Assembly (NCBI GenBank): GCA_051294905.1
Contig: CM119371.1
Span: 62,001-126,000 of the forward strand
Origin: Botryllus schlosseri
Lineage: Eukaryota
Direction: 5' to 3'
Length of the DNA: 64,000 nt
The notes under the pieces were generated by a model that saw only the letters and a list, made by a program, of their open reading frames with translations, did not search any database and had not been told where the DNA came from. A program made the position numbers and the translations under genes. Positions 33,131 to 64,000 of the stretch are shown piece after piece (position 1 is the first letter of the stretch; every line of letters begins with the position of its first letter).

Positions 33131-35174
33131 AATACATTATAACATTACCTACATCGGTGATTCTCAACCGCTGGTATAGGTCCGTGTCAAATTCCCTTGT
33201 CGGCCCGGATAATATATTCGAATTTTATATCGTAGCCTACTTGCAAATGCAAATTGATTTCCTGTCCACAGGTGAAATTGAACATAAATGTTTTCATTGA
33301 TTAATAAATTCGGATGGTATTTTTCCACACCTTGTTGTGATAACTTAACGTGCGCCACGATGCTGCAAGGGTTGTACCAGATTATTCAGAAGGAACCTAC
33401 AACTCGTTTAAGAGACCAGTTATGGAGATTTGTATGGAAGCTAGGAAGGCTTTTTCCTGGAAATTCTTTAATTTCAATCGTATAATTTAGCGATAAGTTG
33501 CACTTCTTTTAAAAGAAACTAAGCAGTCAAAATCCAGTTATATGCTTGTTCTATCAATTATAAAGAGGTCACATAGCTTATGACTTTTGTGAGAGTTTGC
33601 AAATGTACCCCTAGCAAACTAAATTTCTTGCCCACGTTTTCCGAAATATAACGCTAGCATACTTTGGAATATTCGACTTTGAAACGAAGTCATCATAGTC
33701 ATGAAATATAAAATGATTACTTCCTACAGTGGTTTGAAATATGGTGGATGACAAACGCCGCATGCGAATCAAATTAAATATACCTTTTCACCTTCCTTTC
33801 TGTAGTGTTCTCCCATCCCCGTTCTGATGCTCAGGTTTTACAAATGCAATGATAGACTTGAAAAGGGTAATTTGAGATGAGTAAATGAGTAAAACTAATG
33901 TGGCAGCGCGCTGTTAGCGGTAACGTCGAGATATCATCTATAAAAAATTACACAAAACAAATTTATTGTTAGAATATATTTTAGAATAAAATTTGACTTC
34001 GATGCAACCATCAGGGGTATTGCGACAGCAGCTCAACTGTCCGATTCCTCCGCCAATGTGTGGGTCAAACTCATTAGCTTCATTAGCCAACACCAAAGTG
34101 TCCTTTGCCAATTCTTTCAGAAGAGATAATTAGATATAATGTAGTTACAATTCGTCTTGGAGGCCGGCCTGGCGGGATGTTGCTGCGAGACAAGCTACGT
34201 ATTTTGAATTACAAGGATCTTTTGTCAAATAGATGTTGTGTGATGATCATCCAAAAATTGATATTAATATTCCTGTAACCGCTACATTCACAAAGTCTAC
34301 AATTTTAAAGCTCTTCTTGGTAGTTTACAGAGTTACTTTAAGCAAAATATAAGCTGTAACGCTACAGCGGTCGAATATCATTAGTTTTTATATCAGATTG
34401 GAATAATTATTATAAATAGTATTTTGCTTCATATGCCAGTTGCACAACTTTTTTTGTCTTAAATTAGATATTTACTAGGGTGGCAGAGTCTGATTCTCAC
34501 TTTGAGATTTGAACATAGACCTGTCAGTGAACGATTTTCGGCGTATGCAATCGATTTGACATCTTGAAAACTGCATCATTGTCATGGTTCCGGAAAAAAC
34601 TACCAAAGCATGAAATGTATGGAAAACAATTCCATACAATACTTGGAAAAATCCATACCATACCATATTCGCACATTTCCATATTCCATACCGACATTTT
34701 GTTGCAAACCATACCACACTTCCATACCACGCCCTGATTGTATATATAAATAAACCTACAGGCATCGTACCTCCACGCGCGACATTGACTGTAACAATAT
34801 ACTTGCTTGAGGACCTTGTTGACAGGTCACATTTAGATTGGAGAAATTTCCGCGCAGTTAACAATGTCGAGTACCAATGCACCTTGGAAAAGCAGCACAA
34901 CACGTGGTTTGTCAGAAAGTGTATTTCTAGTGTCACTAGGATCAACTGTATGAGTGGATTCGTCAACAAAATGAGAACGTGCATTTCTTCATCAATGTAA
35001 TGGCTTGATGTATCAATGGGTCTGACACAAATAATGACTGAGCCGCAAAAAACAACGACGTTATGACTTTTTTCTTATAGGTATGCGATATTCAAAAGCA
35101 CTGGTGACAACGATTCGAGAACTCTAATCTAGATTCTAAGAATACGAGAGTAGTTAAGTAGATCGGTCGTGACG

Positions 35175-35450
35175 GGCTATCGGGTTCTTATGGGCGGGGT
35201 GGCACGGTGCCGAGAAACCGGGGGTGGCACGGTGACCCTTATCTCTTATGGCGGGGGTGGCACGGTGCCATTGTGTCTTATGGCGGGGGTCGCATGGTTA
35301 CCTTTTCGGGTATACGCGCGGCGGCACGGTGCCGTGAAAACTCGTGGTGGTATGGTTACCTTTTCAGGTATAGGCGCGGTGACATGGTGACCTTTCAGGA
35401 GAGATGATTTGACTAACGTTGTGGGTATAGGCGCGGCGGCACGGTGTTGA
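35175..35450. repeat. GC-rich subterminal tandem repeats (~30 bp) of the outer element
   Basis: Repeated TTATGGCGGGGGTGGCACGGTG-like units just inside the terminus. Confidence 0.75.
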
Positions 35451-35946
35451 ATATGTATCAAGTAAATAGTCATGTGATTGGTCCTTAGGTAATGTGTATA
35501 TTCCAAATTACGGCGAGTACGACAATGATATATCGTTATTCTTATGGACGCGGCGATGATTCGTACTTTCGAGTATCTCTCGCATGGTGTTGAATATGTA
35601 CGAGTCACCAACAATAACCACGCGGACGGAAACGTGGCTTGTTGCGAGGATTAAGCAGTGCGACCTATATTTCGAATGACCTGTGCGGTGAATTGTTTCC
35701 CATGCAGCTGTGTGCTACTATCGCTTATTACACTATTCCATTCAGTGCGAAATAGTTTGATCGTAAATTATGATATATGATGTCGTAGTTTAGTCGTGTC
35801 AAATGACCGATCGTGTTCTCTTTCCTCGCTATTGATTGCTACCTGAATAATACTTTCGGCTTATTCGCTGTTTCACACCTACAGAATAGTCCACTGTTCA
35901 CAGTTGCAACAAGAATCACAAGTATACACATTTACACATTCGTTTA

Positions 35947-36317
35947 TTACTCTGAAATCAAACTCTTCACAAAAGCACGTACAATCGTATCATTCACTTT
36001 TTGATCATCGCCAAAATTATCCAAGTATTCCTCGGCTGAAAACCCTTGAGCTCTTTTTATCAAGAATGCAATAGCATGATCTCCACACACATCCGAAGTT
36101 TTACTCTGTAACTGTTTCCCAGTCACAGAAAATTCATCCGGCTCCAGGAATTCGATTATCTGAGGTTTTAGTGGTCCGAAGCCTAGTGAATCATGAAAAT
36201 GAGTATCGCCATCTCTGTATATACACACACCCAGCGAGACCCAGGCAAACTCGACTCGTCGTAATTAATGATGATAGCGAATTTTCCGTTAGTTGGTTTC
36301 TTCGGTATCTGGTCTAG
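35947..36317 (-). pseudogene. Adenain-type (Polinton/adintovirus) cysteine protease, 5'-truncated and frameshifted
   Basis: LDQIPKKPTNGKFAIIINYDESSLPGSRW / VCIYRDGDTHFHDSLGFGP...QLQSKTSDVCGDHAIAFL. Matches the N.D....G.HW...DS.G...Q.....CG pattern. The catalytic His position reads CGC (Arg) and there is a 2-nt frameshift in the GT run at ~36223-36230. Confidence 0.82.
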
Positions 36318-37788
36318 ATTTAATAATTAACGAATAACAGAACCGTCGCAGACGGTGATTCGAATACCGACAAATTCTCACTTATTTCTGATCCAACCCT
36401 AATCCTTTGCGAAGTGGATGCTTATTCAAAAACGTGTGAAATAATTGTAAAACCCTACGGTCGCTGACAGGATAATGCATCAGACATAGCGATCTAGTTA
36501 TAGTACGGTGTCGGAATCCATTCGCGAGATGTTCTAGAGGTAAATTGAGATAATCCGAAACCGAATATTTTGACTTTGGCGTAGTGTGAATTGAAATAGG
36601 ATTGACAAACATGACTACCAACTTTCCCACAGGCCCGTTTCGATATTATACACACATTGATTTGAAACAAGTAATGTAACATTGCAACTCTATTCACGGC
36701 CCCGCTTTCCGTTTGTCAAAGAGATATTTTAACATCTTACCATACTGAAAAGAATTATTCACAACAATAACAATTGTTAAAAATCTAGTTTTCACTTACT
36801 TGATTATATCACTACAACTCATAAATTTGAATTAATTCATCCTGGTTGTATTCGTATGATCGGTCTTTCTTTTTTTCATTCGATTGTAAAGCTCGTTACT
36901 ATTCTGAAGACAAAGTATTTACTAATCGGTGCATACACGATTCGACTTGAACATATTATATTTTGAGTATACGAGATTTGAATGTCTGAACAATAACTGA
37001 GAAATAATTTATCACAATTAAATCCGTAAAAGATATTTGAATGTCAGCAACTCGGTAAGGTCGTAGTTACTACCACATTACCTAATTTACCCGACCAACT
37101 CGTCATGATCATTCCCGAAATCAACACAAACATGACTACTGACTTGAGTCAACCACAAAACAGCATCAAGTTTTAAATCCGCTTGTAGCTTACGGCTTAT
37201 TTGAATGCGGGTTATGTTTTGTTGTAATTGAGTGTACGGAAATAGTATTACGCCTCGACATCTCACCATCTTGCCATCAACAAAAGAGTAAAATACACAA
37301 ACCTTGTCAAGTCAATCCGTTTGTAACTCACCGAACCAAAGCAAAAAGTGTCCATACGAAAAGTAGACAAGACTACGCAAGTAATCACTACAACCCACAA
37401 ACATATCAAGTTCGGTTTTAGCCATATACCACCAACTCGTCTTTTTTGTTCAACTGTAAAAGTCGTTACTATTTTTCAAGACAAAGTAATTACTACTCGA
37501 TAGATTTTGTAAGACAAAAGTAATTACTACTCGATGCAGACGCCTTGAGATTAACCTAACATGTTTGAGTATACAAGATTTGAAAGTCTGGCCATCGTAG
37601 TTGAGAATTCATTTCTTACAATCGAACGTAGGTGTTATATCGAAAATTACCAGGATTGTCACATCGATTTGACATATGGGGTTTTGTAATGGTCTATCAT
37701 GACTTGATTACTAATTTATTTGTGTTAATTAGACTCACCGATGTGGTGAAGGTTATTACGACAGCAACAAACTTTTCACTATCATGGC

Positions 37789-38467
37789 TATTAACATATT
37801 GAGTTGTAAAACTATACGTGTCTGAAATGTTCTTGATTGACAAATCATTCCACCTTGGTACAAATCACTCTGGGTATCGCGGATATCAGAAAATACTTTA
37901 CAAATGTAATCGTTTAAGTTACCAAGACATTAACATTATTATTAACATATTGAGTTGTAAAACTATACGTGTCTGAAGGGGAAGCGAGTGGCGCAGTTGG
38001 TTAAACACTGCGGTCACGACACCAATGGACGTGGGTTCGAATCACGGTTCTGACCCACTTCTACGTGTCGGAGGTTTCTCTGGGCTCCTCATCGCCGACC
38101 TCACTGCAACTGCAGTGCATTGAAAAGCCCAGACTGAAAGTGAGCCGTGCTACAAGTCGGCAGCAACGACCGCGATGGGAACGCTTGGGAGCGAGAGAGA
38201 ATGAAGAATGACTGCGAGAGAGATTGAAAGACGTTCCCAAGAATACTAAAAGCAAAGACCTCTGAACATTATGAAATTCGTGTCGTGGAGCACAAGGCCT
38301 AACCGGCGATAAGCTCCAACTGTGTTGTACCCATTAATACATACATACATACATACGTGTCTGAAATGTTCTTGATTGACAAATCATTCCACCTTGGTAC
38401 AAATCACTCTGGGTATCGCGGATATCAGAAAATACTTTACAAATGTAATCGTTTAAGTTACCAAGAC
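37789..38467 (+). repeat. ~140-bp tandem duplication, second copy interrupted by a SINE
   Basis: TATTAACATATTGAGTTGTAAAACTATACGTGTCTGAA...GTTACCAAGAC occurs at 37789-37928 and again at 37940-38467. Confidence 0.8.
37978..38352 (+). mobile_element. Full-length tRNA-derived SINE
   Basis: A box TGGCGCAGTTGG, B box GGTTCGAATCAC, (CATA)n tail, 13-bp TSD ATACGTGTCTGAA. Confidence 0.9.
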
Positions 38468-39516
38468 TAAAGATGAAACAACAATTCCGTTTGCTGGCTA
38501 ACAACCGGGTAATACTTTATTGTCAGAATCTGTGACGGTGAATTGAAACATACTCATCTTACGCAGTACGAGTAAATCACTTTGGACTCCGGGCGGCGTC
38601 GTTTAATCCGTGTTAAACTCTGTTCACACTCTCTGTCGAATGTGTGAAATGTAAAACATTACGAGGTTACACTCTAAGACTTTGATCAACAGAGAAACAA
38701 TTTTGAATATCTTTACTGGATGGATCCTATTCAACCGACCTTGGTTAATACAAAACTCATAACAATAATAAAATCGAAGTATGTGCTACACTGAAATCTA
38801 GAAAAATGTGTTTGTATTGTTGTTCATAGTAGTGATATCGATTTGAACCTGCGGAATAATTGTCATCATCTAACCAAACTAATGAAAGTCGTTGTCACAT
38901 TGTATGATGTTCACTGAATGCATACTAGTACTATTTGTGCAACACACACGAGCAGAGAAATTGGAAATTTTCCCATTGCCATTTGTCAAAGTAAATGTCG
39001 TCACAATACTCAGTCACTAAAAGACCATATACTTGTATGTGATTGAATCACCAACAATTAACTCGCTAAATCAAATCGTAAGGCAATTTCACGCACTCAG
39101 CGGATATTATACAACGTCGCTTTATCGGTGTGGGTCGTTTTTTCTAAATACAAATCATATCTGTCCAGTAGAAAACAATTTTCACTCACTTGGGTAACGA
39201 AACCAGTGTGCAATATCAACACAAGATATTTTCGTGACACAAAAAATAATCAACTTTACTCAATATTCTCGTAAAACGAAACTGTACAATGGTTTCATAT
39301 TTTTTGTATGACATGGAATTAATACCGATCGAAGTAGCCGCATTGGAAATGATTTTTAAACAAACACACTCTACGTGGTTAACATTCTCATCGATTCTAT
39401 TGTGACCAATGTATACTTCATGTGCTCTGGATTCATTTCGATATGGTTAAGCATTCAGCCTCGACAGTAGTTAAGTAGATCGGTCACGATTCGTACATTT
39501 TTGCATGGGGTAGTAT

Positions 39517-39760
39517 AGGCGGGGTCGCATGCTAACGCGAAAACCGGGGTGGCATGCTAACGTTTTCGTCTTATGGTGGGGTGGCATGCTAACGTTTTCG
39601 TCTTACGGCGGGGGTGGCATGCTAACGTTTTCGTCTTATGGCGGGGGTGACATGCTAACGTTTCGTCTTATGGGTGCGGTCGCATGATAACGCGAAACTC
39701 GTGGTGGCATGCTAATGTTTTTAGGTATACGTGCGGCGACATGCTAACGACGATAAATGT
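39517..39760. repeat. GC-rich subterminal tandem repeats (~32-33 bp), inner element left end
   Basis: GCATGCTAACGTTTTCGTCTTATGGCGGGGGTG units; mirrored at ~55270-55512. Confidence 0.85.
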
Positions 39761-40248
39761 GTCTGTCGTGTATTCTTACGGGATCTGTGGTGATTCACCA
39801 TGTGTTCTTATGGGTGCGGTCGTGATTCGCACTTTCAGACATCTCTCGCGTGGTGTTGAATATGTACGAGTCACCAACAATAACCGCGCAAACGGAAACG
39901 TGGTTTGTTGTGAGGATTACGCGTGCGACCTATATTTCGAATGACCTGTGCGCTGAATTATTTCTCGTCCAGCCGCTACTATCGATTATTACACTATGTC
40001 ATTCAGTGCGAAATAGTTTGCTAAATCTAGGAATCAGTCGCATGGTGTTACTTTAGTAATTAGTTTACCACAGAGCCGGCGTAGCCGGTGATTCGAATAC
40101 CGACAAATTTTCACTTATTTCTGACCCAACCCTAATCCTCTGTGAAGTCGACGCTTATTCAAAAAGGTGTGAAATAATTGTAAAATCCTAATCCGAAACC
40201 GCTTATTTCGACTTTGGCGCAGTGCGCATTGAAATAGGATTGACAAAC

Positions 40249-40560
40249 ATGACTACCAACTTCCCCACAGTCCCGTTTCGATATTATACACACATTGATT
40301 TGAAACAAGTAATGAAACATTACAACTCTATTCACGGTCTGGCTTTTCGTTTGTCAAAGAGATATTTTTACATCTTACCATACTCAAAAGAATTATTCAC
40401 AACATTACCAATTGTTAAAAATCTAGTATTCAATTACTTGATTATATCACTGCAACTCATGAATTTTAAATTAATTCATCCTGGTTGTATTCGTGAAAAC
40501 CAAAAATTTGTCACTAGCCCGCGATCGCTATATGTTTCACACCTCGCGAAAAGTGGCTGA
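40249..40560 (+). CDS. Hypothetical element ORF (103 aa, MTTNFPTVPFRYY...); mirror copy on the minus strand at 54468-54779
   Basis: Open in very AT-rich DNA, with CAAACATG start context; the outer-element homolog (36611-36850) shows synonymous changes plus stops. Confidence 0.4.
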   Translation: MTTNFPTVPFRYYTHIDLKQVMKHYNSIHGLAFRLSKRYFYILPYSKELFTTLPIVKNLVFNYLIISLQLMNFKLIHPGCIRENQKFVTSPRSLYVSHLAKSG

Positions 40561-43500
40561 CTTTAGTTGCGTGATAAGATCCATGAAAATATTCAATCGA
40601 TGTGTTAGTTTGTCAACTTGAAATGTAACTCACTACACAAATCAAGTTGAATCGTATTTGAATGTATTGATTCGACCCAACTCAAATCCTTTGACAAATC
40701 CTATTAACGCGATCTGTCGAATCGAGCGTAACCCGAATATTACTGACGCCGACTTTCAGCCACATTGAATTATTCGCACACCCACGCCGCTGTTTTCACA
40801 ACTATAACTCTACAAGAATCAAGAATCACAAGTACGTGCATTACACAGTTATTGTCTTCATCAACTTGAAATCAAACCCTTAACAAAAACACGCATCTTA
40901 TCACTTGTCAACTCTATCATGAAAATCCTCGAACCCGTATTATTAAGAATGTTATAGTACGGTATCGGAATCCATTCGCGAGAAAGGTGAATCCAAATAA
41001 TCCAGAATGAAATATTTGGACTTGACATAGTGTGAATAGAAATAGGTTTGACAAACATGACTACCAACTTTGATCCAGTCACATTTCAAGATTACACTTT
41101 GAAACAATCCTTGAAACTTACAACTGTATTCACGACTGAGTTTTCCATTTGTCAAATAGAGTTTCAGTAAATACTATCGCGATATTTTAATGTGTTACTA
41201 CACACAATAGAATCAATCAATGAAATAACACCTGTTGTAAATATTTCTAACTTGACAAACACTTGTACATACCGCGATCGACTTGTGACGCGATGAGTTA
41301 AATCGGAATATTTCAATCTATTTGTCGAAACCTTGAACAAACTATCGGGTTATTTTTTGTTGCAATCGAGTGAACGGAAATAGTATTACGTCTCAACATT
41401 TCAACATCTTCCCATACACAAAAGAGTAAAATACAAAAAAACCTTGTCAAGTCAATCCGTTTGTAACTTACCCAACCAAAACAAAAAGTATCCTTACGAA
41501 AAGTAGACAAGACTACGCAAGTAATCACTACAACCAACAAACATATCAAGTTCTGTTTTAGGCATATACCACCAACTCGTCTTATTGGAATGTCAGCAAC
41601 TCTTTACGGTCGTAGTTACAACCACGTAAACTAATTTACCCTACCCACACGTCATGATCATCCCTGAAATCAACACAAACTCGACTACTGACTTGAGTTA
41701 ACCACAAAAACGGCATCAAGTTTTTTAATCCACTTATAGCTGACAGATTATTCGAATACATCGATGGAGAATATTATTGAACTCGTCGGTATTGTTACTT
41801 CAACAAATTACACCGACTGCGAAAGTTAATATCGAATGGTAAGACTTGATCACATATTTGTTGAACACAGAAATGACAAAGAACATGATCGGAATTTTAT
41901 AAACTAGTCATATTACTTTTCACATCTATCAATATCAGAATACAAGTCATCAAACTTTTTGTTAAATGTAACATAGCACTTTTGGAATCGGATTCGTTAT
42001 AGTCGTACAAATTGTATTAAACACAACATCAAAACAAAAGGACTTTTTTAGTTTATTGAAATCAAATCATTCGTCTTCGACTTGTGCTTTTTTAGATTGC
42101 CAGCGACAATTCGTTTCGAGTGAGTTGTAACCAAAGTCAAGATATCTTTGTGTCCACAGATATGGAAGATGAATATAGCTAACACAATCACGAATCGACG
42201 TTTCAGATTATTTCACGGATGTAATAAACTTGTTAGTGTCACCTATCTAAAAGTACGCACGCGCTCGATTTCCATGCCGACTGTTGCGATGTTTAGGATT
42301 CACTTACAATAACCACGGATGAGGATTTAACATCAACGTCGTTACTGGTAGTATTCACAACAGAGAATCCAAACATTACACAGTGTGAAAATATATCTTT
42401 GATATCAAAGCATTATCCCAAGTATACGATTAATAGTCAACTCCGTTCACACTTTCTATAGAACGTGCTAAATGTAAAATATCACGAGGTTGCACTCTAA
42501 GACTTTGATCATTACAAAAAGTAAATTGGAATATGTTTGCTGGATGCATTCAATTCAGCTAGAAATGTCTAGTGCACAACAATCGTAATATCAAGGAAGT
42601 ACTTGCTATCACTAAACGTGTTTTGTATCGTTGTTCATTTGTAGTATTGATTGAAATTGTTTTTGAACACTCAAATAATAATTCCCGACATGAAACCAAG
42701 CCGCTGAAAGTCGTTACCATAACAAAGAAACAATTTGTACGATGTTTGGCAAATGTACCCTATAGTTAGGTGTACTAGAATTATTTGTGTAACACATACA
42801 CCGACAATGCAATCGAAATTTTTTCCGTTGTCATTCGCTAAAGTAAATGTCATCACAATACTCTGTCACTAAAAGACGTTACTCGGGCGTGCTTGAATTC
42901 TAGGCATAGTTCTGATTTACCCAACACAAGACCCAAGGACAACCCTAGTTTCAGTCGAACACAGATATCCAAAATATCGCACACTCCGCTATTCCTAAAG
43001 TACAAACACCCGATACAAAATATTACTTGTTGTGTTGTTGCGGTATCATCTTCACAATATCACCATTTTGTTTGTGTCAATTAGTTACTTTGTATGTTAC
43101 CCCACAACTCTTATAAAAGTACGAAGGATATTAACATCGCACTAAGTAATTAACTTTACTCGATATTCTCGCATTACGAAACTAAAGAATGGTTGGTTAG
43201 ACTCTACAAACTGTTTCGATATCACGAGACCTTTATTGTATCTTAATAATCAAATAGTTCAACACAGAACTAGTACTAACAGAAACACCAGAGTTGTTTA
43301 CACAAAAGTTTGTATATGTGCACAGTATGCGAATACCATGTGTAAGTCCAGCACAATTGCGGTATCCATCCGAGTTTAGTTAACACAAATTTATTACAAC
43401 GGAGTCACGTAAACTTTCGTGAAAGGAAAGCATACTCACTCCCAGAGGGTTATGTCAATGCCATAGCAGTTCCCCAACAACAAAGTACATATGTTTTCTA

Positions 43501-44404
43501 GTCACGGTCCTTACATCTTTCACATAGATCAATCTACTTTGCTAACGAAAAGTGCTAAGTCATCACATGATCGCTCTCACAACAAAACAGCTAGTAGATA
43601 TTATCATTCAAAATATTCCTAACCCTTTACATACCAGTAACAAATCATACAACGAATATGTTTTGTGGGTCGAATTGTTGTTCAGTGTCAAGTCTACCTG
43701 TTGAAACGTACATTAAAACAACACAGTCACAATCAAATTAAAACCACGAATCTATTTTCATTTCCTCGCAAACTGTCACATACAGAAAAATAAATTTAAT
43801 TTCCCAAAACATACTTGTAACCAATCGCTTTCATTAAACACACAACACCATAATAGTATTTACTTTCTACAACATAGACATTCCGGTGTAGTCAAGAAAT
43901 ATTTTTAATAATCAAAATCATCGACTTCTGTTTACGGTGTTAGTGTGTGCATGTCATACATGTGGGCCCGTATTAAAATGGACACGACAGGACTGACTGT
44001 AAGGAGATAGAAGTCTATCGCATAGATTTACATGTGGTCTTCGCTACGGTTTCAAAAAACGAATCATCTCTTTTGCATTGATCTAGACCGAGCAAGTTAG
44101 TTAATGACCATGATTGTGTTTGTCATATGCGAATGATAGGGTTACTGTCAAATCTACATACAACAATCTTCTGACGATCATAATAGCAATTTCATTTTCC
44201 GCCCCTTCATAATTGTACAACTCGGTAACTACGTTTAACAAGACCAATCACACTACCAGCGTTGAACACAAGATACCTACCCAAGTAAAAATATCATTCT
44301 GGTTTGGACAACTGACGTTTACCTGTGTAAAATTATCATTTTCACTTGGAGGTCCACCGTCACCTAACTAAAATACCATTGTCCTTTGGAGATTTATCGT
44401 TTAC

Positions 44405-44885
44405 CCAGTGTAACAATCCCCTTTTCACTTGGAAATATATTTTTGCCCTGGATAACAAACCCCTTTTCCCTTGGAAATCTATTTTTGTCCTGGATAACAA
44501 ACCTTTTTCACTTGGAAATATATTTTTTCTCTTGGTAACAAACCTTTTTCACTTGGAAATCTATTTTTGTCCTGGATAACAAACCTTTTTCACTTGGAAA
44601 TATATTTTTTCTCTTGGTAACAAACCTTTTTCACTTGGAAATATATTTTTTCTCTTGGTAACAAACCTTTTTCACTTGGAAATATATTTTTTTCTTGGTA
44701 ACAAACCTTTTTCACTTGGAAATATATTTTTTCTCTGGGTAACAAACCTTTTTCACTTGGAAATATATTTTTTCTCTGGGTAGCAAACCTTTTTCACTTG
44801 GAAATATATTTTTTCTCTGGGTAACAAACCTTTTTCACTTGGAAATATATTTTTTCCCTGAGCAACAAACCATTTTCACTTGGCG
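44405..44885. repeat. ~41-bp minisatellite in the inner left arm
   Basis: AACAAACCTTTTTCACTTGGAAATATATTTTTTCTCTTGGT units; the mirror array at ~47595-47950 has ~3 fewer units (122-bp offset). Confidence 0.9.
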
Positions 44886-46323
44886 GGTCGTCGTTTACCT
44901 TAGTAAAAATATCATTTTCCTTTGGAGATCCGGCGTTTACCTAGTGTAACAATAAATTTTCTCTTGGTCATCTAGCTTTTCCTAGAGTAACAAAACCATT
45001 TTCATTTTGAAATCTGACAAACACACCTAACAATTTGGTATTTGTTGTATTGACGATACTTTGAAATAGATTACAACGAACAGTGACGGAAATATACACG
45101 GACTTCCGGTTTCAGAGTATACCCTCATCAGTCGTATCACATCAATATCATTGGTTAACCACATACAATATGCTCTTGTACACCGAAATGCATGTTTTGG
45201 AAAATTGGACAATAGGCTTCGATAGTCCTGTGATGTCCGGGTTCGTGCTTTGGATTTTCCAGAGTCAAAATGTCTGAATAAAACACCTCCTCGACGATGG
45301 TTGGTATGTGGATAACGGTGTTCGGAAAACGGTTGGATTTATGTCACCCATCGCGATAACAATTCCAGGTCGAGTTTTCCCCCACGCATGTTTACTATAT
45401 TGTGTCTTTATTGGTCAATGTATGTCTCGACATTCAGTTTGAAATCGGAAACCCTGATAAAGTATGTAACCGGATCCGGATATCAATTCTGAATCGATAA
45501 ACCAATGAACGATATTCAAAGTAAACATGTTACATCCTGTGTTTCCACGAAAAAATACCATCCAGACATACGTCGCGCTTGTTTACCCACAACAGTATAC
45601 GCGTAAATGGAGGTGTGTGACATTGCATGCAATGTGTTGGTATACAAACATCGGGCAGTAAGCCTTCGATCCACAGACATTATCATAGCCGGTAGTTTTG
45701 ATGTAGATCGAATGTCATCACACCCGATAACAATGTCATACCAATAAACCACATTACAATGACTCTGAGTCAATCTGAAGCAGAACATACAGACACCGTT
45801 CACTGATTTACTCGATGGTTTTATCGCGTTGTAACATTACAAGATAGTCATGACCCTATCTCCGGACAGACGTCCCAGATCAATTGGATACATGGGTCAA
45901 TATCCATCGTGTTGTCGAGACCGAAGTTTTCTGCTGAGACTGCAGCGTTTCACCAATGTGAACTATCGAAGTACGGTGCTCGAAATGATTGTGATCAGTC
46001 TTTCAGTCACGATGCAAGGATGTCGCTACTCCCACATAACGACTCCAGATAAATATCGTGAACAGTGATTCTGAAAATCTCGGACTGATACTGTGATCCA
46101 ATAAGGTATGTTTCTGTGGAATGAAGACTGCAATCGTACACCACAATAGAACACTACCTCGCTATTTCACACGCAATCATAAAACACATCATCGTAAGGG
46201 TCCAGTTCGTCCGGCAACATTTCGAAACGGTCATCGCCACAAGAGATCGGGTTGGTCTCGTCGTATCGGTAGCATTTTGAAACTGTCATCACCACAAGGC
46301 TATTGACGTCGTTTCGGTTGGTC

Positions 46324-52669: not shown

Positions 52670-55600
52670 GTGAATACTACCAGTAACGACGTTGATGTTA
52701 AATCCTCATCCGTGGTTATTGTAAGTGAATCCTAAACATCGCAACAGTCGGTATGGAAATCGAGCGCGTGCGTACTTTTAGATAGGTGACACTAACAAGT
52801 TTATTACATCCGTGAAATAATCTGAAACGTCGATTCGTGATTGTGTTAGCTATATTCATCTTCCATATCTGTGGACACAAAGATATCTTGACTTTGGTTA
52901 CAACTCACTCGAAACGAATTGTCGCGGGCAATCTAAAAAAGCACAAGTCGAAGACGAATGATTTGATTTCAATAAACTAAAAAAGTCCTTTTGTTTTGAT
53001 GTTGTGTTTAATACAATTTGTACGACTATAACGAATCCGATTCCAAATGTGCTATGTTACATTTAACAAAAAGTTTGATGACTTGTATTCTGATATTGAT
53101 AGATGTGAAAAGTAATATGACTAGTTTATAAAATTCCGATCATGTTCTTTGTCATGTCTGTGTTCAACAAATATGTGATCAAATCTTACCATTCGATATT
53201 AACTTTCGCAGTCGGTGTAATTTGTTGAAGTAACAATACCGACGAGTTCAATAATATTCTCCATCGATGTATTCGAATAATCTGTCAGCTATAAGTGGAT
53301 TAAAAAACTTGATGCCGTTTTTGTGGTTAACTCAAGTCAGTAGTCGAGTTTGTGTTGATTTCAGGGATGATCATGACGTGTGGGTAGGGTAAATTAGTTT
53401 ATGTGGTTGTAACTACGACCGTAAAGAGTTGCTGACATTCCAATAAGACGAGTTGGTGGTATATGCCTAAAACAGAACTTGATATGTTTGTTGGTTGTAG
53501 TGATTACTTGCGTAGTCTTGTCTACTTTTCGTAAGGATACTTTTTGTTTTGGTTGGGTAAGTTACAAACGGATTGACTTGACAAGGTTTTTTTGTATTTT
53601 ACTCTTTTGTGTATGGGAAGATGTTGAAATGTTGAGACGTAATACTATTTCCGTTCACTCGATTGCAACAAAAAATAACCCGATAGTTTGTTCAAGGTTT
53701 CGACAAATAGATTGAAATATTCCGATTTAACTCATCGCGTCACAAGTCGATCGCGGTATGTACAAGTGTTTGTCAAGTTAGAAATATTTACAACAGGTGT
53801 TATTTCATTGATTGATTCTATTGTGTGTAGTAACACATTAAAATATCGCGATAGTATTTACTGAAACTCTATTTGACAAATGGAAAACTCAGTCGTGAAT
53901 ACAGTTGTAAGTTTCAAGGATTGTTTCAAAGTGTAATCTTGAAATGTGACTGGATCAAATTTGGTAGTCATGTTTGTCAAACCTATTTCTATTCACACTA
54001 TGTCAAGTCCAAATATTTCATTCTGGATTATTTGGATTCACCTTTCTCGCGAATGGATTCCGATACCGTACTATAACATTCTTAATAATACGGGTTCGAG
54101 GATTTTCATGATAGAGTTGACAAGTGATAAGATGCGTGTTTTTGTTAAGGGTTTGATTTCAAGTTGATAAAGACAATAACTGTGTAATGCACGTACTTGT
54201 GATTCTTGATTCTTGTAGAGTTATAGTTGTGAAAACAGCGGCGTGGGTGTGCGAATAATTCAATGTGGCTGAAAGTCGGCGTCAGTAATATTCGGGTTAC
54301 GCTCGATTCGACAGATCGCGTTAATAGGATTTGTCAAAGGATTTGAGTTGGGTCGAATCAATACATTCAAATACGATTCAACTTGATTTGTGTAGTGAGT
54401 TACATTTCAAGTTGACAAACTAACACATCGATTGAATATTTTCATGGATCTTATCACGCAACGAAAGTCAGCCACTTTTCGCGAGGTGTGAAACATATAG
54501 CGATCGCGGGCTAGTGACAAATTTTTGGTTTTCACGAATACAACCAGGATGAATTAATTTAAAATTCATGAGTTGCAGTGATATAATCAAGTAATTGAAT
54601 ACTAGATTTTTAACAATTGGTAATGTTGTGAATAATTCTTTTGAGTATGGTAAGATGTAAAAATATCTCTTTGACAAACGAAAAGCCAGACCGTGAATAG
54701 AGTTGTAATGTTTCATTACTTGTTTCAAATCAATGTGTGTATAATATCGAAACGGGACTGTGGGGAAGTTGGTAGTCATGTTTGTCAATCCTATTTCAAT
54801 GCGCACTACGCCAAAGTCGAAATAAGCGGTTTCGGATTAGGATTTTACAATTATTTCACACCTTTTTGAATAAGCGTCGACTTCACAGAGGATTAGGGTT
54901 GGGTCAGAAATAAGTGAAAATTTGTCGGTATTCGAATCACCGGCTACGCCGGCTCTGTGGTAAACTAATTACTAAAGTAACACCATGCGACTGATTCTTA
55001 GATTTAGCAAACTATTTCGCACTGAATGACATAGTGTAATAATCGATAGTAGCGGCTGGACGAGAAATAATTCAGCGCACAGGTCATTCGAAATATAGGT
55101 CGCACGCGTAATCCTCACAACAAACCACGTTTCCGTTTGCGCGGTTATTGTTGGTGACTCGTACATATTCAACACCACGCGAGAGATGTCTGAAAGTGCG
55201 AATCTCGACCGCACCCATAAGAACACATGGTGAATCACCACAGATCCCGTAAGAATACACGACAGACACGTTTATCGTCGTTAGCATGTCGCCGCACGTA
55301 TACCTAAAAACATTAGCATGCCACCACGAGTTTCGCGTTATCATGCGACCGCACCCATAAGACGAAACGTTAGCATGTCACCCCCGCCATAAGACGAAAA
55401 CGTTAGCATGCCACCCCCGCCGTAAGACGAAAACGTTAGCATGCCACCCCGCCATAAGACGAAAACGTTAGCATGCCACCCCCGGTTTTCGCGTTACCAT
55501 GCGACCCCGCCTATACTACCCCATGCAAAAATGTACGAATCGCGACCGATCTACTTAACTATTCTCGACAGATACGAATTGTCACACACTCAACTAATAT

Positions 55601-57039
55601 CATACCAAATAGTTATATACAACAACCAAGACACAGAAAATTTGTTTTGGCCGTTTCGATTTTACTACTGGAGGTACTCATCACTTCGCTTAATACAATC
55701 TAGATTTAAACCCCATCGAACCTTTGGTGTCTATCGTTTTGCTGGATACGAATTATGTTAGTCTAACAGTAAACAATTTTCACAATCTTGGGTTATGAAT
55801 TCAATGTGTTGGCGGTCGTTCATTATTTTGTTTGTATCAACTAGTTACTTTGTAGGGTATGAATGAGCACCCTCCCACAACTCTTACAAAAGTACGAAGG
55901 ATATTTACATCACACAAGTAGTCGACTTTACTTCATATCCTCACACTACGAAACCAAATGGTTGTTTAGACTCTACAAACTTTTTTACACGAATGGTCAC
56001 ACATCTAAATATTCAAATAATCCAACACACAACAATAATACTTACAGAAATATCATAGTTCTTGTAACAAAGGTGTTTATCGTAAGTCCTACACAGTCAT
56101 GATAACCGTCCGAGTTTGACTTTTAGAAAATATTATATCGATACATCTTTCAAAAACAAAACCGTGGTCACTGCTTGAGAGACCTGCCAATGATATCACA
56201 ATAATACAGTTACTTCCACAAAAAAAAAATATGTATTCGACTTACTTTCCACAAATCTAACACACAAAACAATTTACTTTGCTAGCGAAAAGTGCTGAGT
56301 CATCATATGATTGTCCTCACAACAATACAACTAAAACATACTATCATACAAAATGGTCGTTATAGTTTGCACCCCAACGATACATCGTAAAAGTAACAAG
56401 TTTCAAGAATCGAGTTATTGAAAAACGTGAAAGTGTTTCTCCTGTGTCAAGTCGTTATGTTGATGAAAGTGTATATTGTAATATCATGATCAATTTGCAT
56501 TCGTTGGTCACAAACTGTCACTACTCTAAATAATTATTTTTCACTCAAACACAACAGCATACTTGTCGCCATTCGTTTTCATCAAGCACGAGGTCAAGAA
56601 ACTTACTTACTACGACATGAATTGGTATTTTTATGTTGTGTAAATACGTAATAATTAATTTTAGTAACACTATATCAACATCATCGAGTTGTGCGAATAG
56701 ATTTTCATGTGGTCTTGCGGTTTTAATCGAAGCACACATCATGATCTAATGTAGAGTCGTCTCTATTGTATAGCAACTCGGTAATCGAAATGCATGCATT
56801 AACATTTAAACAGCGATCGTGTTTCGTCACGCGAAAAATATGTTCACTACCGCGATACTCTGCACAGGGCGTGCAAATCCTTTTCACACTCGTAATAGTA
56901 TACCAACGGCTACCGGCGACAACGTTTAACAATACCAACGACACTAAACATACGATACCTACCCAAGTAAAATTTCCATTTTCACCTGGAGGTCAGCCGT
57001 TACCTGACTAAAAATACCATTGTCCTTTGGAGATCTTTG

Positions 57040-57600
57040 GTTTACCTAGAGTGACAATACATTTCACTTGGCGATCTACCTTTTCCTACAGTAGCAATAA
57101 CCTTTCCGTTTGGAAATATATTTTTCCCTGAGTAGCAAACCATTTTCACTTGGCAATCTATATTTTCCCTGAGCAACAAACCATTTTCACTCGGCGATCC
57201 ATCGTTTACCTGATTAAAAATATCATTTTCCTTTGGAGATCTGACGTTTACCCAGAGTAAGAAACCATTTTCACTTGTAAATATATTTTTTCCTTGGCTA
57301 ACAAACCTTTTTTCACTTGGAAATATATTTTTTCCTTGGCTAACAAACCTTTTTCACTTGGAAATATATTTTTTCTCTGGTTAACAAACCTTTTTCACTT
57401 GGAAATATATTTTTTCTCTGGTTAACAAACCTTTTTCACTTGGAAATATATTTTTCCCTGGGTAACAAACCTTTTTTCCCTGAGCAACAAACCATTCTCA
57501 CTTGGTGGTCCGTCGTTTAGCCGAGTAAAAATATCATTTTCCTTTGGAGATCCGGCGTTTACCCAGTGTAACAAAACATTTTCACCTGGAAAAATACTTT
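57040..57600. repeat. ~41-bp minisatellite in the outer left arm
   Basis: Same unit as in the inner element; mirrored at ~61300-61860. Confidence 0.85.
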
Positions 57601-57609
57601 TACCTAGAG

Positions 57610-58897
57610 CAGTGGGTCCCAACGTGGGCGATATCGCCCCCCAGGGGGCGATTTGTCGGTCCTGGGGGGCGAAAATAGCCAAGGGGGCGATAGGGGGGCG
57701 AAAACGGACGAAGGGGGCGATTGGGGGGCGATGGCGCGTTGAAATGGCTATATTGGCGTCCATGGCCGTAACTGTCACACCCAAGCCCCCAATTGAGATG
57801 GGGGGCCCACAATTCTTTCGTGAATTAACATTAATTATAGAGTATTATTTTGGAAATTTAGGCAACTTTTTCAAAAAATTTTCGCGCTGCGCGCCATTTC
57901 GTGGACGCATATTTCTTGCCTATTGGATACCCTTCCTCCTAGAAATAATACGCATGAAGTATAGAAATGGGCATCTCGGCGTCAGCCATTATCACACCAT
58001 GACGCACCAAGACATATGAAGTTTCAGGCCATGTAACATGCGACTCCGAGAAAACCTTGGCGGAAAAAGACTGCCTTTATGCTGACCGACTTCGATATAT
58101 AGACATATATATTTAATTGTCCATAGGCGCCTAAATGGCTGGCGCCAAATGCTCCTGTTCTGTCCAATCAGAACCTCACAAATAAATGCCATACCGCAGA
58201 GAAAAATTAGTTACCAGTGCAGAAATGCCAGTTTGAAATCGAAATCGTGTGCGACTTTTAGTTTAGTACGTATGGGCGATTTGAATATCTTTTGACATAG
58301 CAGACTGGCCACGAAATGTCATGTCATATGTTCAATTATTATTTATGGGCCCTACATTTTCCAAGACACCTCACTCAGCTTTAACGGTAAATCTGAATAC
58401 ATGAGCAGAGAGAAGATAAAAAATTGACAGCAATATTTATGCAATTCCCGAGCATATTGACCGATTCAATCATGAATAATAGAAATTTTTCGCGCTTCGC
58501 GCGAATTAGGCCGACTAACTAAAGAGTCCAACAATTTGTGCTGAGAAGTAGCGGTAAAGAGGTATCGGGGGAGTTGGGTCTGCGGGGCGCAGAAGTTTGC
58601 TTTATAGCGCTATGGAGGGGGTCAAGACCAACGTATTGAGGGGGGCTGACGAAGTGCTGTTACGGTCCTTTGGGAATCAAGTCAGAGAAATCACCTTTTC
58701 TGTTAGTCAACTCACCAAAATTTAGCTGGAAAAGTGTAATTTCGAGGTCGAGCCGAAAAGTTGACCTTTTTTTCTTAGTCAACTCGCCGGTGATTTCAGT
58801 GTGTATGCCCATTTTTGTGTTCCCAATATTTGGGGGGCGATTATCGGTGTGGAGTTTGAAAAGGGGGCGATGAGTCGAAAAAGGTTGGGAACCACTG
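57610..58897 (-). mobile_element. Non-autonomous hAT (Charlie-like) element, copy 2
   Basis: TIR CAGTGGGTCCCAAC / GTTGGGAACCACTG; TSD ACCTAGAG; single-copy empty site in the right arm at ~61287; homolog of 7720-8991. Confidence 0.92.
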
Positions 58898-61299
58898 ACC
58901 TAGAGTAACTAATCATTTTCTCCTGGGTAACAATCCCTTTTCGTCTGGAAACTATCATTTAACTGAGTACCAATACCGTTTTCACTTGGAAATACATTTT
59001 TTCCCTGGGTAACAATACCATTTTCGTTTTGAAAACTGACAACCACGCCGGTCAATTTGATATTTTTGTATATTGTTACAACAAACAGTGACGGAAATAC
59101 ACACAGACAACCGGTTTCAGAGTATACCACATCGGTCGTATCACATCAATATCATCGGTTAACCACATACAACATGCTCTTGTACACTGAAATGCATGTT
59201 TTGGAAACTTGGACAATAGGCCTCAATAGTTCTGTGATGTCTGGGTTCGTGCTTTTGATTTTCCAGAGTCAAAATGTCTGAATAAAACACCTCCTCGACG
59301 ACGGTTGGTATGTGGATAACGGTGTTCGGAAAACGGTTGGATTTATGTCACCCATCGCGATAACAATTCCTGGTCGAGTTTTCCTCCGGCATGTTTGCTA
59401 TATTGTGTCTTTATTGGTCAATGTATGTCTCGACATTCAGTTTGAAATCGGAAATGATAAAGTATGTAACCGGATCCGGATATCAACTCTGAATCGATAA
59501 ACCAATGAACAATATTCAAAGTAAACATGTCACACCCTGTGTTTCCACGAAAAAAATACCATCCAGACATACGTCGCGCTTGTTTGCCCACACCAGTATA
59601 CGCGCAAATGGAGGTGTGTGACATTGCATGCAGTGTGTTGGTATACAAACATCGATCCACAGACATTATCATAGTCGGTAGTTTTGATGTAGATCGAATG
59701 TCACCCGATAACAATACCAATAAGCCACATTGCAATGACTCTGAGTCTGCGCTATTACATCGATATTTCGACACCGTTCACTGATTTATTCGATGGTGTT
59801 ATCGTGTTGTAACATTACAAGATAGTCATGACCCTATCTCCGGACAGACCACCCAGATCTATTGGATACATCGGTCAATATCCAGCGTGTTGTCGAGACC
59901 GAAGTTTTCTGCTGAGGCTACAGCGTTTGACCAATGTGAACTATCGAAGTACGGTGCTCGAAATGATTGCGATCAGTCTTTCACTAAATCACGATGCATG
60001 GATGTCGCTACTCCCACATAACGACTCCAGATAAATATCGCGAACAGTGATTCTGCAAATCTCGGACTGATACTGTGATCCAATAAGGTGTGTTTCTGTG
60101 AAGACTGCAATCGTACATCACAAATAGAACACTACCTCGTGATTTCACACACAATCATTAAACACGCCACCTTGAGGGTCCCATTCGTCCGGCCACATTT
60201 CGAAACGGTCATCGCCGCAAGAGATCGAGGTTGCGCTCGTCATATCGGTAACATTTTGAAACGACATCGTCACAAGGTCCAGGGAAAAGAAATGTATCGA
60301 TTTATCGGATTTGTACATATCCAACAAAAACCTGGGTATATGATTGTACACGGTTCGCATATTTGACTGTGATCACAATATTGGTATGTACTGTACATTT
60401 CACTTTCATCGCCGTGCGAATAACCCATGTTACGGTTCCGTGTTTGTGTGTCTGTATGTCATGCTTCAGATTGACTCAGAGTCATTGCAATGTGGCTTAT
60501 TGGTATTGTTATCGGGTGACATTCGATCTACATCAAAACTACCGACTATGATAATGTCTGTGGATCGATGTTTGTATACCAACACACTGCATGCAATGTC
60601 ACACACCTCCATTTGCGCGTATACTGGTGTGGGCAAACAAGCGCGACGTATGTCTGGATGGTATTTTTTCGTGGAAACACAGGGTGTGACATGTTTACTT
60701 ACTAGTTGATATCCGGATCCGGTTACATACTTTATCATTTCCGATTTCAAACTGAATGTCGAGACATACATTGACCAATAAAGACACAATATAGCAAACA
60801 TGCCGGAGGAAAACTCGACCAGGAATTGTTATCGCGATGGGTGACATAAATCCAACCGTTTTCCGAACACCGTTATCCACATACCAACCGTCGTCGAGGA
60901 GGTGTTTTATTCAGACATTTTGACTCTGGAAAATCCAAAGCACGAACCCAGACATCACAGAACTATTGAGGCCTATTGTCCAAGTTTCCAAAACATGCAT
61001 TTCAGTGTACAAGAGCATGTTGTATGTGGTTAACCGATGATATTGATGTGATACGACCGATGTGGTATACTCTGAAACCGGTTGTCTGTGTGTATTTCCG
61101 TCACTGTTTGTTGTAACAATATACAAAAATATCAAATTGACCGGCGTGGTTGTCAGTTTTCAAAACGAAAATGGTATTGTTACCCAGGGAAAAAATGTAT
61201 TTCCAAGTGAAAACGGTATTGGTACTCAGTTAAATGATAGTTTCCAGACGAAAAGGGATTGTTACCCAGGAGAAAATGATTAGTTACTCTAGGTAAAAG

Positions 61300-61860
61300 T
61301 ATTTTTCCAGGTGAAAATGTTTTGTTACACTGGGTAAACGCCGGATCTCCAAAGGAAAATGATATTTTTACTCGGCTAAACGACGGACCACCAAGTGAGA
61401 ATGGTTTGTTGCTCAGGGAAAAAAGGTTTGTTACCCAGGGAAAAATATATTTCCAAGTGAAAAAGGTTTGTTAACCAGAGAAAAAATATATTTCCAAGTG
61501 AAAAAGGTTTGTTAACCAGAGAAAAAATATATTTCCAAGTGAAAAAGGTTTGTTAGCCAAGGAAAAAATATATTTCCAAGTGAAAAAAGGTTTGTTAGCC
61601 AAGGAAAAAATATATTTACAAGTGAAAATGGTTTCTTACTCTGGGTAAACGTCAGATCTCCAAAGGAAAATGATATTTTTAATCAGGTAAACGATGGATC
61701 GCCGAGTGAAAATGGTTTGTTGCTCAGGGAAAATATAGATTGCCAAGTGAAAATGGTTTGCTACTCAGGGAAAAATATATTTCCAAACGGAAAGGTTATT
61801 GCTACTGTAGGAAAAGGTAGATCGCCAAGTGAAATGTATTGTCACTCTAGGTAAACCAAA
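61300..61860. repeat. ~41-bp minisatellite in the outer right arm
   Basis: Reverse complement of 57040-57600. Confidence 0.85.
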
Positions 61861-64000
61861 GATCTCCAAAGGACAATGGTATTTTTAGTCAGGTAACGGC
61901 TGACCTCCAGGTGAAAATGGAAATTTTACTTGGGTAGGTATCGTATGTTTAGTGTCGTTGGTATTGTTAAACGTTGTCGCCGGTAGCCGTTGGTATACTA
62001 TTACGAGTGTGAAAAGGATTTGCACGCCCTGTGCAGAGTATCGCGGTAGTGAACATATTTTTCGCGTGACGAAACACGATCGCTGTTTAAATGTTAATGC
62101 ATGCATTTCGATTACCGAGTTGCTATACAATAGAGACGACTCTACATTAGATCATGATGTGTGCTTCGATTAAAACCGCAAGACCACATGAAAATCTATT
62201 CGCACAACTCGATGATGTTGATATAGTGTTACTAAAATTAATTATTACGTATTTACACAACATAAAAATACCAATTCATGTCGTAGTAAGTAAGTTTCTT
62301 GACCTCGTGCTTGATGAAAACGAATGGCGACAAGTATGCTGTTGTGTTTGAGTGAAAAATAATTATTTAGAGTAGTGACAGTTTGTGACCAACGAATGCA
62401 AATTGATCATGATATTACAATATACACTTTCATCAACATAACGACTTGACACAGGAGAAACACTTTCACGTTTTTCAATAACTCGATTCTTGAAACTTGT
62501 TACTTTTACGATGTATCGTTGGGGTGCAAACTATAACGACCATTTTGTATGATAGTATGTTTTAGTTGTATTGTTGTGAGGACAATCATATGATGACTCA
62601 GCACTTTTCGCTAGCAAAGTAAATTGTTTTGTGTGTTAGATTTGTGGAAAGTAAGTCGAATACATATTTTTTTTTGTGGAAGTAACTGTATTATTGTGAT
62701 ATCATTGGCAGGTCTCTCAAGCAGTGACCATGGTTTTGTTTTTGAAAGATGTATCGATATAATATTTTCTAAAAGTCAAACTCGGACGGTTATCATGACT
62801 GTGTGGGACTTACGATAAACACCTTTGTTACAAGAACTATGATATTTCTGTAAGTATTATAGTTGTGTGTTGGATTATTTGAATATTTAGATGTGTGACC
62901 ATTCGTGTAAAAAAGTTTGTAGAGTCTAAACAACCATTTGGTTTCGTAGTGTAAGGATATGAAGTAAAGTCGACTACTTTGTGTGATGTAAATATCCTTC
63001 GTACTTTTGTAAGAGTTGTGGGAGGGTGCTCATTCATACCCTACAAAGTAACTAGTTGATACAAACAAAATAATGAATGACCGCCAACACATTGAATTCA
63101 TAACCCAAGATTGTGAAAATTGTTTACTGTTAGACTAACATAATTCGTATCCAGCAAAACGATAGACACCAAAGGTTCGATGGGGTTTAAATCTAGATTG
63201 TATTAAGCGAAGTGATGAGTACCTCCAGTAATAAAATCGAAACGGCCAAAACAAATTTTCTGTGTCTTGGTTGTTGTAAATAACTATTTGGTATGATATT
63301 AGTTGAGTGTGTGACAATTCGTATCTGTCGAGGCTGAATGCTTAACCATATCGAAATGAATCCAGAGCACATGAAGTATACATTGGTCACAATAGAATCG
63401 ATGAGAATGTTAACCACGTAGAGTGTGTTTGTTTAAAAATCATTTCCAATGCGGCTACTTCGATCGGTATTAATTCCATGTCATACAAAAAATATGAAAC
63501 CATTGTACAGTTTCGTTTTACGAGAATATTGAGTAAAGTTGATTATTTTTTGTGTCACGAAAATATCTTGTGTTGATATTGCACACTGGTTTCGTTACCC
63601 AAGTGAGTGAAAATTGTTTTCTACTGGACAGATATGATTTGTATTTAGAAAAAACGACCCACACCGATAAAGCGACGTTGTATAATATCCACTGAGTGCG
63701 TGAAATTGCCTTACGATTTGATTTAGCGAGTTAATTGTTGGTGATTCAATCACATACAAGTATATGGTCTTTTAGTGACTGAGTATTGTGACGACATTTA
63801 CTTTGACAAATGGCAATGGGAAAATTTCCAATTTCTCTGCTCGTGTGTGTTGCACAAATAGTACTAGTATGCATTCAGTGAACATCATACAAATTGACAA
63901 CGACTTTCATTAGTTTGGTTAGATGATGACAATTATTCCGCAGGTTCAAATCGATATCACTACTATGAACAACAATACAAACACATTTTTCTAGATTTCA

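Follow-up and report, generated by a model that had tools for sequence, protein, structure and literature searches.

A nested pair of palindromic elements in Botryllus schlosseri, very probably derived from Mavericks

How do two giant palindromes come to share one locus in the genome of Botryllus schlosseri, and what keeps the two arms of each element nearly identical when the elements themselves have diverged? The question is raised by the right-hand part of the window, by which we mean the whole 64,000-nucleotide stretch analysed here (positions 62,001 to 126,000 of contig CM119371.1, G000:C1:62001-126000, in an assembly of 495 Mb and 219 contigs), where an earlier note had described an outer palindrome hosting an inner one on the same axis. 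The region is very probably a nested pair of palindromic derivatives of Maverick (Polinton) transposons, the younger inserted into the older. That the arms are kept identical by copying on a free linear molecule during the life cycle is a reading that we marginally favour, and the explanation as a whole, in which the identity of the elements is combined with mobilisation in trans and with such copying, seems to us on balance probable.

Self-comparison of positions 34000-69000, for which the contig was taken 6 kb past the window, resolves two palindromes with separate axes, at ~60110 for the outer and ~46238 for the inner element. The inner element is flanked by its own target-site duplication (TSD), CTCGAC, and the unbroken target (...CAGC CTCGAC AGATACG...) is kept in the outer right arm near 63325, in mirror position to the site of the inner element. 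The duplication together with the intact empty site in the opposite arm argues for nested transposition and not for a concentric palindrome, so that the proposal of a common axis has to be abandoned: the inner element is a plain insertion in one arm. The right end of the outer element had been predicted to lie ~3.1-3.7 kb past the window, with a mirrored terminus followed by TACGAG, and it does so exactly, 3,104 bp past the window at G000:C1:129104 (window-equivalent position 67104), where the sequence ...CTACTTAACTACT (in short form ...TTAACTACT) gives way to TACGAG. A single 20-mer, AGTAGTTAAGTAGATCGGTC, opens both the outer element at 35149 and the inner element at 39466, which bears out the statement that the two share a terminus; at the other end the outer element closes with ...AACTACT and the inner with ...AACTATT, 1 mismatch from the canonical form. 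The features are listed below in window or window-equivalent positions, with the strand where it applies.

35143-35148: left TSD of the outer element, TACGAG; its mate at 67105-67110 lies outside the window
35149-67104: outer element, ending 3,104 bp beyond the window, with TACGAG on both sides
35149-39465, forward: outer left arm, distal part, with the (AGT)2 terminus and 32-bp G-rich repeats; partner at 63327-67104
39460-39465: left TSD of the inner element, CTCGAC
39466-55563: inner element (16,098 bp), wholly within the left arm of the outer element
39466-45796, forward: inner left arm (6.3 kb), with terminus, 32-bp repeats and 41-bp minisatellite
45797-46680, forward: inner unique spacer (884 bp), with homology to the spacer of every other copy examined
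46018-46071, forward: 54-bp block, the best-conserved non-coding part of the spacer, containing the 20-mer core at 46025-46044
46324-46599, forward: 91-codon orphan open reading frame (ORF; MSIRFT...GSHI, stop) in the inner spacer
46681-55563, reverse: inner right arm, split by the foreign insertion 50005-52669
50005-52669: hAT-like non-autonomous transposon (2665 bp) with 31-bp terminal inverted repeats (TIRs) and 8-bp TSD GTGAATAC, in the inner right arm only
55564-55569: right TSD of the inner element, CTCGAC
55570-59747, forward: outer left arm, proximal part, with minisatellite and the one-arm insertion 57610-58897
57610-58897: hAT-like non-autonomous transposon (1288 bp) with ~14-bp TIR (CAGTGG..) and 8-bp TSD ACCTAGAG, in the outer left arm only
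59748-60472, forward: outer unique spacer (725 bp), with core motif at 60007-60026 and a truncated small ORF
60473-64000 and on to 67104, reverse: outer right arm, with the empty site of the inner element near 63325

Once the insertions are set aside, the arms of each element pair along their length. In the outer element 35149-37928 pairs with 64325-67104 (99.7% identity), 38353-39467 with 63325-64439, 55564-57609 with 61287-63332 and 58898-59747 with 60473-61294; the corresponding pairs of the inner element are 39461-42358 with 52670-55568, 42351-44760 with 47594-50004 and 44535-45796 with 46681-47945. Differences between the arms amount to 0.28% in the outer (19/6754) and 0.41% in the inner element (24/5830), whereas between elements the arms match at 82-90% over 45-80% of their length, as the earlier note had it when it called the elements diverged and the arms alike within each. 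It was also right that both elements carry the subterminal 32-bp G-rich repeats (35219-35302, 39546-39692 and 55336-55484) and the 41-bp minisatellite (inner, 44410-44883 and 47594-47945; outer, 56976-57476 and 61420-61828). The 15-mer GGGCAGTAAGCCTTC, offered as an example of a sequence private to the inner arms, is indeed confined to them with up to 2 mismatches allowed, at 45653 (forward) and 46810-46824 (reverse), although the coordinates given for it were 1 nt off.

The two hAT-like insertions are unrelated to one another, and in each case the opposite arm keeps an intact empty site. The outer copy was the first to insert, at TACGAG; the inner copy followed, into the outer left arm at CTCGAC, and the two hAT-like elements arrived last, each in a single arm. 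Some ~0.4-0.5 kb of the outer left arm (37929-38352) is without counterpart in the right arm, and a 115-bp stretch adjoining this indel is used twice in the arm alignment (64325-64439). A 306-bp block found at 36551-36855, 40189-40494 and 54534-54839, 92% identical between outer and inner arms, sits at differing distances from the termini, an instance of the reshuffling of blocks to which the earlier note had drawn attention, here between subfamilies. A scan of 35000-64000 against Rfam returned no family at gathering score, and the ORFs at 34475-34984 and 51218-51658 gave nothing usable in Pfam or PDB sequence searches.

The two elements belong to a large family, as opposed to a one-off inverted duplication. 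The terminal 20-mer, with up to 2 mismatches, has 296 forward and 297 reverse matches in the genome (593; reversed control 0 and 0), and the spacer 20-mer GCTACTCCCACATAACGACT (46025-46044 in the inner element) has 655 (controls 0 and 3). Among the 100 terminus matches listed, 43 pairs of opposite orientation were found, 20 of them spaced 13.0-14.0 kb, with 14 termini left unpaired. The typical member is ~13.5 kb long, with ~6.2-kb arms around a unique spacer of 0.7-1.0 kb, 5'-(AGT)2...(ACT)2-3' ends and 6-bp TSDs. Three further copies of ~13.5 kb are whole-element palindromes with arms of ~6.2 kb (96.4-99.95% identity), spacers of 0.93-0.98 kb and perfect 6-mer TSDs, which brings the complete copies examined that are whole palindromes with homologous spacers to 5/5. 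If most copies are full length, the palindromes would make up ~1-2% of the genome.

Where both ends could be read (16 elements, both window elements included), all start with AGTAGT and 15 have a perfect 6-bp TSD, the remaining one differing by a single mismatch. The central dinucleotide of the hexamer is CG in 9/16 and a pyrimidine-purine step in 15/16, a bias suggesting that the integrase may prefer a symmetric NN-CG-NN target. Perfect TSDs, together with the empty sites and the one-arm insertions, exclude for the family as a whole that the palindromes are assembly artefacts such as fold-back chimeric long reads, an idea that we consider scarcely credible: both termini and a unique coding spacer are present at hundreds of loci, other transposable elements have inserted independently into single arms opposite intact empty sites, and the window structure is free of gaps. 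The assembler did have trouble with the family at two 'double-spacer' loci, L041-L043 (C11:22.19 Mb) and L052-L054 (C2:28.39 Mb), each of which holds a 100-N gap. At the C2 locus, the one of the two checked for direct repeats, a 100% identical direct repeat of 7.2 kb lies on either side of the gap. We considered whether these loci are natural multimers and rejected this on account of the gaps and the direct repeat; they are assembly artefacts.

What these palindromes derive from becomes apparent from longer copies in the same genome that share their termini. These are 16-22 kb long, non-palindromic and rich in ORFs, with TIRs of 613-782 bp in the three measured. One of their ORFs encodes an rve integrase with a C-terminal chromodomain (E values of 2.9e-16 and 4.3e-8). 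Another, of 1089-1300 amino acids (aa), has 623 homologues, and among the best 120 of these (E values from 3.5e-240 to 5.8e-158, with named matches from sea cucumbers and a sea anemone) 101 contain PF03175, the protein-primed type B DNA polymerase (PolB); a language-model search agrees with this assignment. Queried directly, the 1089-aa ORF yielded nothing usable from Pfam or PDB sequence searches, and a PF03175 profile search of the genome matched neither the target nor the controls and is hence uninformative. For a P-loop ATPase there are only sub-threshold P-loop and Pox_A32 matches, while Maverick ORFs of 188, 217, 225, 297 and 301 aa have no usable Pfam or PDB sequence match; the AlphaFold2 (AF2) model of the 301-aa ORF has a predicted local distance difference test score (pLDDT) of 34 and is unusable.

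Vertebrate Mavericks are characterised, in the portions of the published survey consulted, by 5'-(AGT)2//(ACT)2-3' (or 5'-AG...CT-3') ends and 6-bp TSDs (PMC8097293). Since their genes, 6-bp TSDs, TIRs, size of 16-22 kb and end motif match the published hallmarks, the long copies are Mavericks/Polintons. The window elements have only the terminal sequence in common with them and lack the Maverick genes, and are therefore classed as non-autonomous Maverick derivatives and not as strict Mavericks. Neither polymerase-like coding (tblastn and ORF scans) nor the rve integrase (tblastn) was found in the palindromic elements, and a coding scan of the arms revealed no conserved open frame besides the spacer ORF. 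A 20-mer from the integrase gene has 93 matches in the genome (controls 1 and 0), so that by motif count the spacer outnumbers the integrase ~7 to 1: autonomous Mavericks can spawn abundant non-autonomous derivatives. This derivation, with its autonomous partners, had been overlooked in the earlier note, as had the conserved small ORF of the spacer.

The polymerase-like ORF was compared in two autonomous lineages, one represented by copies C5 (L033:321-3587) and C1b (C1:34868426-34884932), the other by L055 and L057. In the C5/C1b lineage FDxE of Exo I reads FSxE, the Asp of motif A is Thr, YG of motif B is YD and DTD of motif C is DIN, and the ORF is under purifying selection, with a ratio of nonsynonymous to synonymous substitution rates (dN/dS) of 0.15 at dS 0.29. 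The other lineage has 35 ORF matches, 31 of them without stops, and canonical Exo and Pol motifs in two of the three copies read.

The spacers of all copies examined can be aligned. Those of the inner and outer element lie in the same orientation, as had been stated, and their surroundings match over 45071-46299 with 59076-60277 (89.7%) and over 46510-47406 with 60277-61116 (88.9%). The 91-codon ORF retains its start codon in 5/6 complete copies, has no indels across deeply diverged copies and shows dN/dS of 0.2-0.45 at dS 0.6-0.8. A six-frame search of the genome gave 1,179 candidates, of which 150 were scored; all 150 are essentially full length, with 86-100% aa identity, and 143 are stop-free. 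The outer element has lost the N-terminal two-thirds of the ORF by deletion, leaving the last ~30 codons, with a stop that ends at 60366.

The 91-aa protein was not found in the autonomous copies, has no Pfam match and is without relatives among viral and metagenome contigs; among 1.84 billion representatives it has one match, the unnamed 3-member cluster P0121, and in the ESM Atlas it reaches only scores of up to 0.88, to unnamed bacterial clusters. Its AlphaFold model (pLDDT 42) is unusable. Four RNA runs, searched at 90% likeness or more over 45000-46700, contain few reads there and say nothing firm on expression; the 57 reads of the bulk RNA run all lie only partly within this interval, and the depth over the ORF is 1-4.

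We turn next from the identity of the elements to their arms. That arms should pair by element and not by side had been named beforehand as a test of the family, and a maximum-likelihood tree was built from ~2 kb of terminal arm sequence of 17 elements (34 arms). The two arms are sisters in 13 of the 17 elements, which are all 13 of the palindromes; one pairing is weakly supported (63), with one arm aberrant. The four elements that group by side all hold the integrase motif and are thus of the non-palindromic autonomous type, the ends of which differ beyond the TIR. Consistent with the tree, probes from the inner and outer arms match other copies as pairs of opposite orientation that score nearly alike, and this in lineages with 86-97% identity to the probe, and over full arms the within-element differences are 0.02-0.4% in unique sequence.

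The ends of the arms hold a second kind of evidence. One end of a 16.5-kb autonomous copy recurs, at 95% identity, as the outermost 1,168 bp of either arm of the outer element; this module is made up of the 763-bp TIR and 404 bp present at that autonomous end only. In both arms of another palindrome, copy C2a (L044/L045, C2:16138245-16151807), 1,142 bp are 94.7% identical to the opposite end of the autonomous element; here the module extends past the TIR by 768 bp and takes in a complete 217-aa ORF. Modules from opposite ends, each of them mirrored, indicate that terminal exchange with autonomous elements has occurred at least twice. The two inverted copies of the 217-aa Maverick ORF in C2a are 96-97% identical at the aa level to the autonomous version, so that in some palindromic subfamilies a helper gene is present twice, as an inverted pair. 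The arms of C2a differ only in tandem-repeat zones, 3.5 kb of unique arm sequence being 100% identical. Its overall arm identity of 96.4% could be mistaken for that of an old, decayed copy, which the confinement of the differences to these zones rules out.

How might such elements move and maintain their arms? The palindromes keep the replication and integration ends of Mavericks and nothing else of the helper, so that the simplest reading would have them mobilised in trans by the autonomous Mavericks (16-22 kb) resident in this genome, with the Maverick rve-chromo integrase as the presumed source of the 6-bp duplications. One arm would be copied from the other at a stage when the element is free and linear and replicates from its ends. 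This could proceed by several routes: the displaced strand may fold into a 6-kb hairpin or panhandle, in which a mismatched or heterologous end is trimmed and re-extended from the other arm; the polymerase may switch between the two identical arm templates; or a half-molecule may snap back. Trans-mobilisation, an extrachromosomal stage and the copying mechanism are all inferred from sequence, and the panhandle has been proposed as a homology-restoring intermediate for the inverted terminal repeats (ITRs) of adenovirus and PRD1, in the part of the literature drawn on here (PMC11886824). Re-copying of the arms in a panhandle or strand-displacement life cycle, which the earlier note had put forward, appears to be the best reading.

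The mirrored terminal modules are the strongest argument for copying on a free molecule. The DNA outside each terminus is unrelated host sequence, and a heterologous block mirrored exactly to the end would therefore be generated more easily on a molecule with free ends. Traces within the arms may point the same way. The palindrome of the inner element reaches 25 nt further inward (45772-45796 and 46681-46705) than that of the outer element and of copy C1a, and the extension replaces a 27-nt spacer segment kept by both (59748-59774 in the outer element); this boundary shift looks like a local trace of arm-to-arm copying.

Several points weigh against this explanation. The mechanism draws on comparative anatomy only, and even in the model systems adenovirus and PRD1 the source consulted, as far as its cited part goes, describes panhandles as being without direct evidence (PMC11886824). 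The copies sampled are few and lean towards the best matches of the window's termini. For the capsid and protease genes of the putative helpers, Pfam and PDB sequence searches and the AF2 model brought no confirmation, and the altered catalytic columns of C5/C1b imply that not every Maverick with shared termini can be a replicative helper. Finally, the arms are near-identical in unique sequence in every sampled copy, across lineages 5-18% apart, with no decayed pair among them. Were decay to set in only after integration, and old copies to persist, some decayed pairs would be expected; that none was seen would be explained equally well by gene conversion in the chromosome or by old palindromes being lost quickly. 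Nor is the younger inner element (0.41%) less diverged between its arms than the older outer one (0.28%), the difference being not significant (Fisher p=0.22).

The last two observations are those expected if the family is Maverick-derived, as proposed, and its arms are kept identical in the chromosome by arm-to-arm gene conversion, to which the life cycle adds nothing. Large sex-chromosome palindromes maintain the identity of their arms by intrachromosomal conversion of this kind, and the displacement by 25 nt of the boundary between arm and spacer in the inner element could equally be a conversion tract. Against it, blocks of 1.2-1.5 kb from opposite autonomous ends are mirrored exactly to the termini, where, for lack of homology outside, a chromosomal conversion tract would be unable to resolve exactly at the end. 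Moreover, one-arm insertions of 1.3, 2.7 and 16 kb have been neither erased nor copied to the other arm, and in arms that match at 100% over 3.5 kb the tandem-repeat zones are nonetheless different. We consider maintenance by chromosomal conversion rather unlikely.

A stricter variant of copying on the free molecule supposes that what transposes is a half-element (terminus, arm and spacer) or a hairpin, from which a fresh palindrome is made in each round by snap-back synthesis. It would account for the mirrored terminal modules and for an arm identity of 99.6-100% in the unique sequence of every copy, and snap-back defective genomes have been described for adeno-associated virus (AAV), in the excerpted part of the source (PMC8235507). 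A spacer of 0.7-1.0 kb that is conserved and coding is nevertheless unlike a simple turnaround, and the inner element either arrived with or acquired 24 differences between its arms; this variant strikes us as improbable.

Arm-to-arm copying on a free element remains the reading that we marginally prefer, and it can be extended, speculatively and with considerable doubt, to one in which the palindromes are satellites or hyperparasites of Mavericks: the helper polymerase would replicate them from their ends, the helper integrase would insert them and the helper capsid would perhaps package them. If this were so, the modal size of ~13.5 kb, ~80% of the 16.5-kb helper, might reflect a packaging constraint, and the target of the 91-aa loop protein would be the helper or the host. 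In the mirrored modules one would then have, for the first time, a natural genome-scale record of the restoration of homology from end to end in Mavericks, and hence of an extrachromosomal linear replication stage.

Free linear, protein-primed replication of Mavericks/Polintons has so far been inferred from gene content. The family described here amounts to a natural experiment, with hundreds of 13.5-kb palindromes, co-evolving arms and repeated capture of terminal modules mirrored in both arms, and offers a natural test of end-to-end homology restoration and hence of a linear replicative stage in Mavericks. There is a practical side too, in that such palindromes break assemblers and could be misread by repeat annotation as segmental inverted duplications. 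No palindromic, foldback, non-autonomous, snap-back or satellite derivative of a Maverick/Polinton was found in the full-text literature, a scope outside which lie most subscription journals and Repbase.

Comparison with known systems begins with the autonomous Mavericks/Polintons, as surveyed in the portions of Barreat & Katzourakis (2021) relied on here (PMC8097293), with which the family shares the end motif, 6-bp TSDs, TIRs and a length within the range of 12.7-24.6 kb. The inverted repeats take an extreme form, in that they are the entire arms: 6.2 kb in the palindromes, compared with 46-1,447 bp in vertebrate Mavericks in the same portions of the survey (PMC8097293) and 613-782 bp in the autonomous copies of this genome. 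The latter, with protein-primed PolB and rve integrase, have their termini in common with the palindromes, which differ in lacking polymerase and integrase and in carrying one orphan ORF in the central loop.

Transpovirons and Tlr1 elements resemble the family in being small, linear, TIR-bearing derivatives or satellites, related to Polintons and without a full morphogenetic or replication module, according to the sections of the review used (PMC5499653). In those sections they are described as encoding helicase-type proteins, and not as whole-element palindromes (PMC5499653), whereas the 91-aa ORF here is without named relatives. The snap-back defective genomes of AAV, as treated in the part of the source consulted (PMC8235507), are likewise subgenomic, self-complementary, of one end type and helper-dependent. 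They belong, however, to a parvovirus with rolling-hairpin replication, do not form a heritable integrated family and are without a conserved loop gene.

The transposons FB and Galileo, of Foldback type, are members of the P and MuDR-type superfamilies, with TSDs of other lengths. Like the palindromes, the Foldback-type elements (Drosophila FB, Galileo) have very long inverted arms that consist in part of tandem repeats, and many are non-coding, as set out in the passages of the source consulted (PMC3573991). The palindrome family differs in its Maverick-type ends, its 6-bp TSD and its Maverick helper genes, and is not placed among the Foldback elements.

Palindromic or dimeric defective genomes are known among adenoviruses. 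In adenovirus and PRD1 the ITRs are ~100 bp, in contrast to the 6 kb per arm of the palindrome family, which is host-integrated and is known here from the genome sequence alone. What they share, in the restoration of ITRs through a panhandle as outlined in the part of the source drawn on (PMC11886824), is that they are linear replicons initiating at their ends, one of which can serve as template for the other, and this would explain the presence of an identical terminal module in both arms.

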